Shown here in pieces: positions 33,787 through 64,000 of a stretch of DNA of 64,000 bases. The position numbers and the translations under genes are program-made. The stretch's first letter is position 1. Every line of letters starts with the position of its first letter. The notes beneath the pieces were generated by a model. It was not told the origin of the DNA. It saw only the letters and a list, made by a program, of their open reading frames with translations, and did no database searches. The stretch is from a virus: IMG/VR virus record IMGVR_UViG_2788500300_000002, positions 34,321 to 98,320 of that record. One strand, given 5' to 3'.

Positions 33787-34362
33787 GAATTACATACACC
33801 TATTGGGACGCAAACGGGCGCGAGTACTTCGTCCAGCGCGCGCCCGTCAGTGGATATGGCGTCTACTCCGCTATCGGACGGCGGACGCCTAAGCCGGAGG
33901 TGACGGAGACTTTCGACACGGCAGAAGAAGCACAGGCGCGGCTCGACCAGCTCGCGATGGAGCTAAAACTATGCGCTGCGTAGAGTGCCGGTACTTTCAC
34001 CGTCTCGACCTGCACACGTCGCCCGCGCGCGTCGTATGTGCTAAAAGCGTTTTAGTCGGCAACGATGTAGACGTGCGGCGCGGTTGCGGGATTGGAAAAC
34101 TTAAGTCAAGGGGTGCTGCGGTCTGGAAGCCGGGCGGCGGCACGTCGTGGAACAGAGCATAAGGAGGAATCATGATGTTAGAAATTACGCCGGAACTAAT
34201 AGAAGTTGTAAATAGCACAACTCTTAGGTTGAGAAAGGCCATTCGCTTAGATAAAGAGCTTTTAACGAAGGAAGAATATGAAGAGTACGCCCCAATTTTA
34301 ATAGAGCTTGTCGATGTGCTTGTACTTTGTTCGATGGCCAAATTTGTCCGCGGAGAAACAAA

Positions 34363-60211: not shown

Positions 60212-60961
60212 ATGGCACAGCCGAATTTTATACCTGAGCCGTTTGCAATAAACGGCGATAAGAACACTATCCCGGAGAGCACGACGGCGGGCGCGGCGAG
60301 CTGGCAGTTGGGCTTCCCGCCGATAACCGCGCTTCCGCTCGGGGCCGGAGGCGTGGCCCCCGACCGCAAGGACTTCAACGCCGTCCTTTACGCGCTTTCG
60401 GCGCACGCGGTGTTCATGCAGACCGGCGGCGTCTGGACATACGACGCGCAGCAGAGCTACGCGCCTCCCGCGCTGGTCTACGACGATTCCGACGACAATC
60501 TGTATTTCTGCGTCGGAGCCAACGGCCCGAATGGCACGGTGATGGCTCCGCACTCGGACACGACGGGGCAATACTGGCAAAAAATGCCGTGGGGAGATAT
60601 GACGTGGCTGTTTGAGCCTATCCCTACGCGGACGGGCGACACTACTTTCACCGTGGCGGGCGACGCCACAGGCAAGTTCCCGATGGGCAAGCTGCTGCGC
60701 TTCAACTCGTCCGACGCTTATCTCTGCCGCGTCTTCGGTTCGCCGGTCTACGGCAGCGGGCTGACGACGGTCACGGTGTGGTTCGACAACGCTAATAACG
60801 TCATACCGTCGCCGATAACGAGGCTCGAGCGCAGCAGGCTTATCCCAGAGGCTACCGCGCGCGGCGTGGCGCTCGTCACGACGACGCAGTACAGCCAAGA
60901 CCAGATTACAAAGCTGCTGCAAAGCTACTGCTACAGCTCGGTCACTATAAAGGGGGCGTAA
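60212..60961 (+). CDS. Proximal tail fibre/baseplate-attachment protein
   Basis: PEPFA.NGDKNTIP, ASW..GFPP.T, P.RKDFN motifs. Confidence 0.75.
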   Translation: MAQPNFIPEPFAINGDKNTIPESTTAGAASWQLGFPPITALPLGAGGVAPDRKDFNAVLYALSAHAVFMQTGGVWTYDAQQSYAPPALVYDDSDDNLYFCVGANGPNGTVMAPHSDTTGQYWQKMPWGDMTWLFEPIPTRTGDTTFTVAGDATGKFPMGKLLRFNSSDAYLCRVFGSPVYGSGLTTVTVWFDNANNVIPSPITRLERSRLIPEATARGVALVTTTQYSQDQITKLLQSYCYSSVTIKGA

Positions 60962-60964
60962 GAC

Positions 60965-61534
60965 ATGAGCATACCGATGGACGTTGTTTATGTGCCGGAC
61001 GAGTACGGCAATCTAATCCAGACCAGGGTCCCGACCGCAATCGGCTTCCCGACGTGGTTCGCTGGCCCGGAAATCCCGGAGGGCTATCTCTACTGCGACG
61101 GCAGCGAGGTCAACCGCAACGTGTACAAGGAGCTCTTTGCCGCCATAGGCACCACGTGGGGAGCCGGGGATGGTGCGGATACGTTCAACATCCCTGACCT
61201 CAGAGGCATCTTTGTGCGCGGCGACGGCGGGGAGAACAATGCGGATTTGGGAGTGAGGCAGGGTGATGCAATACGGAACATTAAGGGACGGTTGTTTGAT
61301 TATCTATGGCAAGATGTAAACGGTGGTGATGTACCGATATTATCAGCATCTAACAATGGTTGCTTTGGCAACAATACAACTGACACGAATGAAGCGCGAA
61401 GTGTAGCGAACCCAAATACAATCAAATTAACCGGTTATGACGGAATTTTGTTTGACGCTTCGCGTGTTGTCCCCACCGCCGCCGAGAACCGCCCCGTAAA
61501 TGTCGCGTTAAGACCCTGCATCAGATACGTATAG
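60965..61534 (+). CDS. Tail-collar-domain protein, paralogue 1
   Basis: PEGYLYCDGS...ELFAAIGT.WG.GDG..TFNIPDLRG; C-terminal RPVNVA...CIRY. Confidence 0.85.
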   Translation: MSIPMDVVYVPDEYGNLIQTRVPTAIGFPTWFAGPEIPEGYLYCDGSEVNRNVYKELFAAIGTTWGAGDGADTFNIPDLRGIFVRGDGGENNADLGVRQGDAIRNIKGRLFDYLWQDVNGGDVPILSASNNGCFGNNTTDTNEARSVANPNTIKLTGYDGILFDASRVVPTAAENRPVNVALRPCIRYV

Positions 61535-61548
61535 GAGGAAACAAAACA

Positions 61549-61593
61549 ATGACAGTTAGTATATGCAAACGGGGGGGGGGCGCTCCTCCATAG
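61549..61593 (+). promoter_or_regulatory. Leader ORF 1 with G10 tract (MTVSICKRGGGAPP*)
   Basis: RBS AGGAGG, ATG 61549, G10 at 61571-61580. Confidence 0.6.
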
Positions 61594-61640
61594 GACGCAA
61601 CATATAGTTAACATATCCCGCGCGCGGAGGGCGGACTGAG

Positions 61641-62231
61641 ATGCCGGACATCGAGAGCTACGGCGTTGACGAATATGGCCAGTCCTCGGGCGTCAGATCC
61701 AGATCGCGCGTGGGTGACATCGTTTTCTCGCCGCGAGCCACCCCGCGCGCTGGCACGCTGGTCTGCGACGGCTCTGCTGTGTCTCGACAGACGTATAAGG
61801 AGCTGTTTGACTTCCTCGGCGTTTCCTGCGGCGCAGGAGATGGCGAGACTACGTTTAACTTGCCCGACCTACGCGACGTATGGATACTCTGCGCTGGGAC
61901 GGAGCACGAGGCGGGGGACCGTGTCGCGGAGGGGCTGCCAAATTTGACAGGACAAATACAAGCACGTAATTATTCCAACAACTCAGGCTCGCCAATGCCG
62001 CCCAATAACATTGTGGATAGTGGAGTTTATAATGGCGCAGGGTTAATATCCACAGAATTCCAATCAGGGGATGAATGGGGAGACGTTTTGAGCACGGGCA
62101 CCAGCAACACAACCGGGCAAAGGACTACTGTGTTGAGGTTTAACGCACAAAACGACAATGACATCTACGGCGCATCCGACCACGTAACGCCCAAAAGCGT
62201 GGTGTTGACGCCGTGCATAATCTACGAGTAG
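61641..62231 (+). CDS. Tail-collar-domain protein, paralogue 2
   Basis: GTLVCDGS..SRQTYKELF...GDGETTFNLPDLR; C-terminal YGASDHVTP...CIIYE. Confidence 0.85.
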   Translation: MPDIESYGVDEYGQSSGVRSRSRVGDIVFSPRATPRAGTLVCDGSAVSRQTYKELFDFLGVSCGAGDGETTFNLPDLRDVWILCAGTEHEAGDRVAEGLPNLTGQIQARNYSNNSGSPMPPNNIVDSGVYNGAGLISTEFQSGDEWGDVLSTGTSNTTGQRTTVLRFNAQNDNDIYGASDHVTPKSVVLTPCIIYE

Positions 62232-62248
62232 ATAGGAGATATTGAACA

Positions 62249-62305
62249 ATGATACAGCATACACGCAGAAAGTGTACACGGGGGGGGGCAATCCTCCCTA
62301 GTTAG
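62249..62305 (+). promoter_or_regulatory. Leader ORF 2 with G9 tract (MIQHTRRKCTRGGAILPS*)
   Basis: RBS AGGAG, ATG 62249, G9 at 62280-62288. Confidence 0.6.
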
Positions 62306-62347
62306 TAGTCATATAGTAGCCATTTCGCCGCTCTCAGGGAGTGCTGC

Positions 62348-62881
62348 ATGATGGCCCGCGTCAGAGAGTACGGCGTCGACGAGACCGGCGCGCCGAGCAG
62401 CGTACTGCTGGGCTGCGCGATAGGCGACATCATCCCGCACTTCGGCAGCACGCCGCCGCCTGGGACGCTCGTTTGCGACGGCTCGGAAATCTCGCGCGAG
62501 ACCTACCACGAGCTTTATGAGGAGATAGGCGCGCTCTGCGGGCCGGGCGACGGCTCTACGACGTTTAATTTGCCAGACCTGCGCGGGCGGTGGATGGTGG
62601 GCGCTGACACAGAACGCGGTGCGGGCGAAGAGGTAGCGGAGGGGCTGCCGGACATCGTTGGTACAGTTGGATGGGTCAACGACAATTTGTTTACCGTGGC
62701 AAGTGGCGCTTTTTCTGGCGTGCCAGGCAAAAACGACTACGGAGTTATTGCGCAACCGACTTCGAACACGACTCTGTCTAGAGTGAACTTCAACGCTTCA
62801 GCGTCTAACCCTACCTACGGTGCATCCAACCACGTCACGCCCGCGAGCGTGGCAATTTTGCCATGCATCGTTTACGAGTAA
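62348..62881 (+). CDS. Tail-collar-domain protein, paralogue 3
   Basis: GTLVCDGSEISRETY...GDGSTTFNLPDLRG; YGASNHVTP...CIVYE. Confidence 0.85.
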   Translation: MMARVREYGVDETGAPSSVLLGCAIGDIIPHFGSTPPPGTLVCDGSEISRETYHELYEEIGALCGPGDGSTTFNLPDLRGRWMVGADTERGAGEEVAEGLPDIVGTVGWVNDNLFTVASGAFSGVPGKNDYGVIAQPTSNTTLSRVNFNASASNPTYGASNHVTPASVAILPCIVYE

Positions 62882-62903
62882 TAATCACAGGAGGACACAT
62901 ACA

Positions 62904-62939
62904 ATGTTAGCATACTGTAAGTATATACGGGGGGGGTAG
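62904..62939 (+). promoter_or_regulatory. Leader ORF 3 with G8 tract (MLAYCKYIRGG*)
   Basis: RBS AGGAGG, ATG 62904, G8 at 62929-62936. Confidence 0.6.
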
Positions 62940-62982
62940 TCCTCCCCAGTAGTCATCTCTTTGTTGCCGCGGAGGACGCAAG

Positions 62983-63489
62983 ATGATTGGCGTCAGGAGT
63001 GGCATCAATGAGTATGGCCAGCCATCGAAGTTCATACTCTCTGGCTATGTTGGCGAGTTCAAGTATTTCGGTTTCGAGAGCGTTCCGCCGCACTGCCTTG
63101 CCTGTGACGGCAGCGAGGTAAGTCGTGAGACGTACAGCGAGCTTTTCGCGGTGTTCGGCACGATGTATGGGGCCGGTAACGGGACTACGACGTTCAACTT
63201 GCCGGATTTCCGTGGCGCGTTTTTGCGTTGTGTCGGCGGCAATGCAGCTAATTTAGGAGTATTGCAAGATGCTACTCTCGTTGGTCAATATTGTCTTGGC
63301 AACAATGGTTCCCAAATTGCACTTGCTGTGTACCAACGAGATAGCGAAGGGACGCTTCCAAGGGCAAATACATCATACTCATATACACCAATGGGGTATA
63401 TACCACAAAGTGAAATTGTAAGCGGAAATATTGGGTGGACATCTCGGCCACTCAACTATGCAGTCAACATCTGCGTAGTCTACGAATAA
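62983..63489 (+). CDS. Tail-collar-domain protein, paralogue 4
   Basis: CLACDGSEVSRETYSELF...GNGTTTFNLPDFRG; RPLNYAVNICVVYE. Confidence 0.85.
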   Translation: MIGVRSGINEYGQPSKFILSGYVGEFKYFGFESVPPHCLACDGSEVSRETYSELFAVFGTMYGAGNGTTTFNLPDFRGAFLRCVGGNAANLGVLQDATLVGQYCLGNNGSQIALAVYQRDSEGTLPRANTSYSYTPMGYIPQSEIVSGNIGWTSRPLNYAVNICVVYE

Positions 63490-63519: not shown

Positions 63520-64000
63520 ATGAGCAACAATCAGCAGGCGGAGAGACCCGCCGCACCAGTCATATACACCTACGACAAGACCACCGGCGAGTACAAGCCG
63601 GAGGCAAAGGCCACGTGCCAGTGGTCACCTCGCGAAAATAAGTGGCTTATCCCCGCAGCGGCCACGACCACAGAGCCGCCGACCGCGGGCGAGAAGCAGG
63701 CCGCGTGCTTTGACGCAGCCTCCAAAGCGTGGACGCTCATGCCCGACCACCGCGGCGAGAAGTGGTACGACAAGGCCACGCGCGAGCTGCACGAAATCAA
63801 GGACATCGGCGTCGAGCCTGACGAAACCGTATGGACACAGACCGAACCGAAAGACGGTGAATCCGTCTGGGACGAGGAAACCGGCGGCTGGGTAATCCCG
63901 CCCGAAGTGCAGGAGCGCCGCAACCTCGCAGAGGCACAGCGGCAGGCCAACGACATAATCACAGCCGCCATGCAGCGCAGCGCCGTGCAGACGATGTCAT
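63520..64000 (+). CDS. Tail fibre assembly protein (3'-truncated by the window edge)
   Basis: YTYDKTTGEY...WLIPAAATTTEPP...W...PDHRGE; RBS AAAGGAG; open to the window end. Confidence 0.75.
   Translation, partial: MSNNQQAERPAAPVIYTYDKTTGEYKPEAKATCQWSPRENKWLIPAAATTTEPPTAGEKQAACFDAASKAWTLMPDHRGEKWYDKATRELHEIKDIGVEPDETVWTQTEPKDGESVWDEETGGWVIPPEVQERRNLAEAQRQANDIITAAMQRSAVQTMS

Follow-up and report, generated by a model that had tools for sequence, protein, structure and literature searches.

A 64,000-nt stretch of virus record IMGVR_UViG_2788500300_000002 (positions 34,321 to 98,320; hereafter the window) derives from a Cloacibacillus prophage and corresponds to positions 163553–227552 of contig C12 in a 2.9 Mb genome of 58% GC. 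Close to the end of the window lies a row of four small tail fibre genes encoding Collar-domain proteins, here called tip paralogues 1 to 4, and each of the last three is preceded by a spacer harboring a short leader open reading frame (ORF) that runs into a tract of G residues. In silico translation shows that the length class of the tract sets whether the leader ends 0–25 nt after the tract or at the start of the next gene. The same arrangement recurs in related prophages, where the frame that reaches the next start is conserved and where tract lengths differ between near-identical copies. We hold, with somewhat more confidence than doubt, that these modules are contingency switches that would act through a translated leader ORF and translational coupling, with switching at the tract altering tip expression and possibly host range.

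Leader ORFs, G tracts and coupling frames

The three tracts, G10, G9 and G8, are the sole G/C runs of at least 7 nt in the 64 kb window. Each sits in a spacer of 100–120 nt that separates two genes on the plus strand, and the layout is common to all three: after the upstream gene's stop codon come a strong Shine–Dalgarno sequence (SD), 8–9 nt, an ATG, 7–10 sense codons and the G run, and then three bases, a CCUCC-like stretch, 25–45 nt, a second SD and the ATG of the next gene. The elements of the three modules, numbered after the paralogue that follows, are these:

61533..61539, + strand, SD of leader 2 (AGGAGGA), overlapping the TAG stop of paralogue 1
61549..61593, + strand, leader ORF 2 as sequenced, 14 codons, stop at 61591; G9 or G12 would extend it to the TGA at 61637–61639
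61571..61580, + strand, G10 tract
61581..61589, + strand, pyrimidine motif CGCTCCTCC, predicted to pair with the G run
62234..62239, + strand, SD of leader 3 (AGGAGA)
62249..62305, + strand, leader ORF 3 as sequenced, 18 codons, stop at 62303; G8 or G11 would extend it to the TGA at 62349–62351
62280..62288, + strand, G9 tract
62289..62298, + strand, pyrimidine motif CAATCCTCCC
62890..62895, + strand, SD of leader 4 (GGAGGA)
62904..62939, + strand, leader ORF 4 as sequenced, 11 codons, its TAG (62937) abutting the tract; G9 or G12 would extend it to the TGA at 62984–62986
62929..62936, + strand, G8 tract
62940..62947, + strand, pyrimidine motif TCCTCCCC

The initial annotation, made from the letters of the window, had placed the tracts at 61571 (G10), 62280 (G9) and 62929 (G8) and the leader start codons at 61549, 62249 and 62904, and these positions were confirmed in the sequence. 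It had further held that all three leaders stop within 6 codons of the tract and that one slip, to G9, G8 and G9, respectively, brings each of them to the next start. When the leaders were translated in silico for tract lengths 6 to 13, those of the sequenced lengths were found to terminate 0–5 codons past the tract in all three modules, and the effect of the single slip was reproduced exactly. The resulting junctions are TGAgATG for leader 2, whose stop lies one base before the ATG at 61641, and ATGA for leaders 3 and 4, whose stops overlap the ATGs at 62348 and 62983. The shifts required differ in sign, as had been proposed, being −1, −1 and +1 in the window. Fusion of leader and gene occurs at no tract length: the gene frame is closed by stops at −36, −45 and −33, so that what had been claimed for the first leader applies to all three modules. 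Paralogue 1, correctly described as having no leader, begins 4 nt past the stop of the fibre gene.

The array continues past the end of the window (C12 227066–229301) with the assembly gene, a G7 module, paralogue 5, a G10 module, paralogue 6 and lysis genes. The G7 module before paralogue 5 is coupled as sequenced, its leader reading through to a TAG-ATG junction. The whole array thus comprises six paralogues and five modules, with paralogue 1 hard-wired to the fibre gene, and the figure of up to eight tip combinations given earlier has to be raised to 32 possible states.

Recurrence in related genomes

Across the genome, G/C runs of 6, 7, 8, 9, 10 and 11 nt number 158, 32, 6, 5, 6 and 3, respectively; their frequency drops about fivefold per extra base up to length 8 and is flat beyond, which leaves an excess of runs of 9–11 nt. 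Twenty runs are at least 8 nt long, eight of them phage-associated, and with the addition of a G7 site all nine phage-associated runs share the leader design. An SD–ATG pair lies 21–31 nt upstream of the tract, in a frame open to it, in each of these nine modules and in all four modules at the syntenic locus of a congener (G002). Four of the sites belong to a second prophage type, present in two copies and located on the small contigs C17, C18, C22 and C24; its tip proteins are not Collar proteins and match the C terminus of another tail fibre family.

The four modules of the congener carry G9, G10 (coupled as sequenced), G9 and a decayed G6. Another genus of the Synergistaceae has two modules, both before homologues of the second prophage's tips, and in a third genus (G031) the tract is of the classic intragenic kind, a G7 run within a Collar gene at its 5′ end. 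The paralogue-6 module has orthologues on two metagenome contigs, with G8 (coupled) and G11. A phage collection compared by DNA similarity and an IMG/VR search with the 249-aa fibre protein of the locus yielded no useful relatives, and a pattern scan of IMG/VR detected none of the window's own module types.

Some long runs of the host lie outside phage DNA. Runs of 9–10 nt occur in AT-rich intergenic DNA at C1:266047–266055, C26:19047–19056 and C30:120007–120016; their C strand lies within an SD-led mini-ORF (MIT...TPPP...), and their 5′ flank is like that of the phage modules (RRTRYNNAC-Gn). Elements of this type are kept in another genus of the family (G023, loci L124 and L131). A further run, at C28:47009–47018, is an in-frame G10 in the middle of a 597-aa host ORF, which makes this ORF a candidate ordinary contingency gene.

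Separately, the tip genes on C17 (L225:1395–2124) and C18 (L226:1873–2599) are oppositely oriented and have a common ‘IVGAISDGAIIE’ segment, with inverted repeats of 65–85 nt that are 72–75% complementary and lie about 600 nt apart. This region could be an invertible fibre segment or merely a pair of inverted paralogues.

Conservation of the coupling frame

For about 30% of the genes of this genome, largely in true operon overlaps, a frame stays open up to the start codon and ends there. Taken by itself, this property is therefore a weak test, and spacer shuffles were used for this reason. The test set comprised 13 Synergistaceae modules that had been picked by their G run alone and hence form an unbiased set, whereas the IMG/VR scan described below presupposed an SD and an ATG. 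As the null, spacers were shuffled with dinucleotides preserved, and any frame whose first post-tract stop fell within −6 to +10 of the start was counted.

In 12 of the 13 modules, one frame has its first stop at −4 to +8 nt of the next start, with null probabilities of 0.11–0.63 for the individual modules. The Poisson-binomial P value is 3.5e-6 for all 13 modules and 1.5e-5 for the 11 non-duplicates; both values are generous, the modules being related by descent. A check put forward with the initial annotation, whether the coupled frame is conserved in related prophages, thus came out in its favor (P about 4e-6). Homologous modules keep the coupling frame despite different spacer lengths and different types of stop–start junction, those outside the window being TGATG, TAGATG, TAATG and TAAATG. 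The remaining frames are closed at −24 or further upstream, often by several TAGs, except in the modules of C17 and C18, where one off frame continues out of frame into the gene.

Module families in IMG/VR

When IMG/VR was scanned for the pattern SD, ATG, 17–32 nt, AC and at least eight Gs, about 100 sites were obtained. They include two abundant families, A and B, which occur on shared contigs at a distance of about 925 bp; downstream of family A is a Gly_rich_2 protein, and the protein behind family B has identical first ten residues. Over 32 near-identical copies or contigs, the tract ranges from G8 to G11 in family A and from G8 to G12 in family B, and 15 of the 32 are in the coupled frame (ATGA). 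About a dozen further families, unrelated in sequence, have the same layout, and others are classic 5′ intragenic tracts. The idea that the modules are a general feature of Collar genes was rejected, given that they were found at 1 of the 80 best IMG/VR Collar loci.

One of the intragenic groups, family C (L019, L020, L031, L039, L047, L060, L067, L075, L087, L095 and L109), has its G8–G10 tract after the first 12 codons of an ORF about 400 aa long, with flanks (AAC-Gn-TAAA) identical to those of the leader-type families A and B. Seven leader-type modules (L017, L052, L062, L063, L078, L084 and L106) have a common TTGCACAA(A)G motif about 25 nt past the tract.

Two observations concern the genes behind the modules. 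In the family B gene at L083:2125–2300 (runs X11 and X4), a common segment of about 30 nt (MxRSMMGRKK) is followed by two alternative continuations, both of them within one run, which points to recombination at the conserved 5′ end or to an additional cassette there. The family A Gly_rich_2 gene (L053:790–1560) has 95% identity over 758 nt with a gene of the crAss-like phage cr1_1 (NC_055873, gp058), and the cr1_1 copy directly adjoins its neighbor gene, without a leader module; this suggests that tip-type genes have recently been exchanged between phages that are very different.

Variation in tract length

In the second prophage type, the modules on C17 and C18 have G10 and G11 between flanks that are 95.5% identical, and those on C22 and C24 have G9 and G11 between flanks that are 95% identical. 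Orthologous modules vary as well, with G6, G8, G10 and G11 in the P6 type and G7, G8 and G9 in the P5 type. At the family A and B tracts, contigs from two further runs differ by +/-1 G from the reference copy, a difference between samples. Among the sequencing data searched, the window itself was present just in its source assembly, and two raw-read runs contained no copy of the related IMG/VR phage. All three frame states are represented, coupled examples being the P5 module of G000, C17, the M2 module of G002, L223 and G076. Variable length, together with the existence of coupled copies, favors DNA slippage over a fixed recoding signal; the preference for slippage over programmed frameshifting, voiced in the initial annotation, therefore gains from the length differences among near-identical copies and from the coupled states.

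A conserved pyrimidine stretch behind the tract

A pyrimidine-rich stretch lies at +3 to +12 after the tract in every one of 27 module families. Its predicted pairing with the tract has a mean energy of −8.7 kcal/mol, whereas a control block gives −3.6 kcal/mol (p = 1e-4, n = 27). The tract flanks are also conserved, with AC before the run and a pyrimidine followed by a purine after it. Whole-spacer folds are no more stable than those of shuffles (z −1.1 to +0.8), and the local G run–pyrimidine hairpin alone stands out. When the spacers are folded without the G run, the CCUCC stretch masks the downstream ribosome-binding site (RBS) in several modules, as judged by a fall in predicted accessibility, which raises the possibility that the run may also act as a decoy for an anti-SD.

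Other functions of the spacers were considered as well. An Rfam search of the spacers identified no family (best E-values 0.16 and 0.65, with scores far below gathering scores), and a spacer scan gave no support for terminators. A promoter-spacer switch was rejected, because no promoter-like pair spans any tract and such sites are no commoner than in shuffles. An invertase or a diversity-generating retroelement (DGR) as the basis of variation, which the initial annotation had held unnecessary, was likewise rejected: the prophage contains neither an invertase nor a reverse transcriptase gene, the locus has no long inverted repeats, and the sole serine recombinase gene of the genome is on contig C4.

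Proposed mechanism and alternative explanations

In the contingency model, the late tail operon would be transcribed as a single message, on which a strong SD and an ATG located after each tip gene would launch a leader of 7–10 codons into a G7–G11 tract. Slipped-strand mispairing would add or remove a G, be it when the prophage is replicated along with its host or when the phage itself replicates. With two of the three length classes, the leader would stop 0–25 nt past the tract and at least 24 nt before the next start; with the third, it would remain open across the spacer and the next SD and end on or beside the start (ATGA, TGATG, TAATG, TAGATG or TGAgATG), where ribosomes that have melted local structure could reinitiate and raise translation of that tip paralogue. 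With modules switching independently, a lysogen population would come to hold a heritable and reversible mix of tip states, paralogue 1 always being made. Placing the repeat in a separate leader would spare the N terminus of the tip protein a variable poly-Gly stretch. Slippage within a population, translation of the leader, the size of the effect on the tip gene and any effect on host range are what we infer from the sequences compared; for the tip gene, a change between high and low is more probable than a strict on/off.

Several findings weigh against this model. The tip genes carry good SDs of their own, and their predicted accessibility between −15 and +3 is 0.40, as compared with a mean of 0.45 for 300 genes of the genome (p = 0.16); the OFF state may therefore be leaky and the switch high/low instead of on/off. 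A predicted SD-masking hairpin is conserved only in the family that comprises IG2, IG4, M4, L223 and L224, and masking of the SD as a general feature was dropped for want of statistical support (the same p = 0.16). The pairing between G run and pyrimidine stretch, predicted by folding, is not needed for slippage plus coupling, and neither are the conserved flanks. The host has MutS and MutL, so that slippage rates may be modest, and homopolymer lengths in assemblies may err by one, which makes individual ON/OFF calls soft. Finally, one variant of family A has a 57-nt spacer, with which G9 is an OFF length, and yet G9 remains its modal tract; this gives no sign of selection for the ON length. 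Of the interpretation first offered, then, the part that stood is the anatomy, borne out by recurrence and by between-copy variation in length, whereas a clean ON/OFF switch is doubtful and the conserved pairing is left unexplained.

That pairing is the starting point of an alternative that we regard as unlikely, namely that a length-dependent RNA hairpin formed by the G run and the CCUCC-like stretch works as a frame-independent rheostat and that the leader ORF is secondary. Hairpin geometry, or competition with the leader or downstream SD (both GGAGG), would then tune translation gradually. The pyrimidine stretch of the 27 module families, with its predicted pairing of −8.7 versus −3.6 kcal/mol, is what such a rheostat would use; in several modules, the downstream RBS is predicted to become less accessible once the tract is removed, and the regulation of tlpB by RepG is a precedent (PMC8295292). 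However, a rheostat leaves unexplained why an SD–ATG constantly precedes the tract and why one frame reaches the next start and the other two soon end, in many cases at more than one stop; moreover, added Gs would merely enlarge the loop, so that little length dependence is expected from the hairpin alone. Long homopolymers are slippery sites for both the ribosome and RNA polymerase, and non-heritable recoding, in which either machine slips on the G run and a fixed fraction of leaders reaches the next start to set tip stoichiometry, would draw on this property. The stable predicted hairpin at the tract fits such recoding, as does the sequencing of most modules one step off the coupled frame. 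We nevertheless consider it quite improbable: tract length is not conserved, the sign of the shift is not the same in all modules nor even in near-identical copies, the coupled frame already exists in several copies, and the hairpin contains the slippery run itself instead of lying 5–9 nt downstream as at known −1 sites. In addition, RNA polymerase slippage is documented mainly on A/T runs. A programmed frameshift or transcriptional slippage site was rejected on these grounds, since length and shift vary, several copies need no shift and the hairpin includes the run.

There is also little chance, in our judgment, that the modules have no regulatory role, being units copied along with the tip cassettes or decayed remains of an ancestral 5′ intragenic poly-G start, with length differences that are neutral or assembly errors. 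Module and paralogue have indeed been duplicated as one unit, related genes have 5′ intragenic poly-G versions (G031 and IMG/VR family C), no coupling frame is left in a module that has decayed to G6, and just 1 of 80 other IMG/VR Collar loci carries modules. Against this, the design is kept across unrelated leader and spacer sequences and before unrelated tips (Collar, GSNANG-type and Gly_rich_2), the coupling frame is preserved beyond what shuffles lead one to expect, and long G runs are otherwise purged from the genome. To a broader form of the contingency model we give an even chance: the modules would be a widespread and so far undescribed phage element, a ‘leader-ORF contingency switch’, in which a hypermutable G run in a translated mini-ORF, with a cis-acting, anti-SD-like partner, gates by its length the access of ribosomes to a tip gene; tandem arrays of such elements would give heritable combinations of tips (32 states here) without a change of protein, and unrelated gut phages would have taken them up independently or by exchange.

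Comparison with known systems

G-run contingency loci are already known in phages; what would be new here is a mutable repeat in a coupled leader ORF. Fletchervirus phages of Campylobacter have hypermutable polyG tracts in receptor-binding protein (RBP) genes (Sorensen et al. 2021, Cell Rep 35:109214, as cited in PMC10877375 and PMC12823448). As in those phages, going by these secondary accounts, phage G runs would here give stochastic, heritable variation of several RBPs per genome and mixed virions. By contrast, the tract is there described as lying inside the RBP frame, whereas here it is in a separate leader of 7–10 codons and leaves the tip protein unchanged; an intragenic tract of the Fletchervirus type is incompatible with a gene frame that is closed at −33 to −45. 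The presence of MutS and MutL in the host is a further difference from the Campylobacter phage case. Contingency loci of T2, T4 and other phages, in which short repeats give reversible frameshifts, have been described as bet-hedging (Gomez, Barrick and Waters, bioRxiv 10.1101/2025.10.21.683753). According to the abstract of that preprint, these loci involve frameshifts in coding genes of all functional classes; it describes no leader-ORF or coupling design, no tandem switch array and no flanking hairpin.

The modules resemble the contingency loci of Neisseria, Haemophilus and Campylobacter in homopolymer length (8–11), in the surplus of long runs against a genome otherwise depleted of them and in length polymorphism, but differ from them in that the repeat lies outside both the regulated gene and any promoter and is not flanked by promoter-like hexamers. 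With translational coupling in operons and RNA phages (ATGA, TGATG) they have in common an upstream ORF with its own RBS and a stop on or beside the downstream start; unlike there, a dedicated mini-ORF takes the upstream place, and a mutable repeat determines its frame. For the tip genes, dependence on coupling is putative. The mRNA leader of tlpB in Helicobacter pylori contains a variable G-repeat that is targeted by the C/U-rich small RNA RepG (PMC8295292). Both systems have a variable G run in an mRNA leader that pairs, here by prediction, with C/U-rich RNA; in the modules, however, this partner lies in cis right behind the run, and the run is inside a putatively translated ORF. Like the invertible segments of Mu (Gin/G) and P1 (Cin/C) and the DGR of BPP-1, the array would provide alternative receptor-binding tips from one phage genome. 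Unlike those systems, its cassettes are on one strand and combinable rather than exchanged, and it has no invertase, reverse transcriptase or long inverted repeat. In the phage and bacterial literature searched, outside of which lie most subscription journals, no description of a repeat in a translationally coupled leader ORF was found.

How temperate and gut phages keep pace with variable host surfaces is an open question. If the contingency model is true, the modules would be a fourth route, besides invertible segments, retroelement mutagenesis and G runs in RBP genes, and one that allows any subset of tips with the protein left untouched; one lysate may then contain several host-range variants, which would matter for phage typing and therapy. 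The simple signature (SD, ATG, 7–10 codons, G run, pyrimidine stretch and a frame that ends at the next start) is searchable in viromes, where a module would flag likely receptor-binding genes of uncultured phages. Homopolymer length in phage assemblies can, accordingly, reflect biology rather than error.

Tip genes and their neighborhood

The locus is a baseplate and fibre block of the myovirus type, with Baseplate_J, DUF2612, a 249-aa fibre protein, four Collar proteins of 168–196 aa and an assembly protein. The genes from the fibre protein onwards are as follows:

60212..60961, + strand, tail fibre proximal protein, 249 aa, with residues 1–80 matching the N termini of PHROG tail fiber protein families (E 2e-19)
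60965..61534, + strand, Collar-domain tip paralogue 1 (PF07484, E 2e-20), matching the C-terminal part of tail collar fibre PHROGs
61641..62231, + strand, Collar-domain tip paralogue 2 (PF07484, E 1e-15)
62348..62881, + strand, Collar-domain tip paralogue 3 (PF07484, E 1e-17), its SD inside a predicted local CUCUC/GGGAG hairpin
62983..63489, + strand, Collar-domain tip paralogue 4 (PF07484, E 4e-20)
63532..64000, + strand, 5′ part of a tail fibre assembly protein gene that extends past the window (PHROG tail fiber assembly, E 1e-28; weak PF02413 match)

The Collar proteins match the C-terminal 150 residues of far longer tail collar fibre families (PHROG, positions 486–636 of 673) and also solved long and short tail fibres. 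In an alignment of the paralogues, the collar domain and a C-terminal strand are conserved, and the central segment differs and is variable in length. To take the Collar paralogues as alternative distal tips of the tail fibre is a fair reading of these matches. By eye, the cores of the paralogues (61280–61440, 61930–62160, 62650–62800 and 63250–63470) are AT-richer than the conserved ends and the rest of the prophage.

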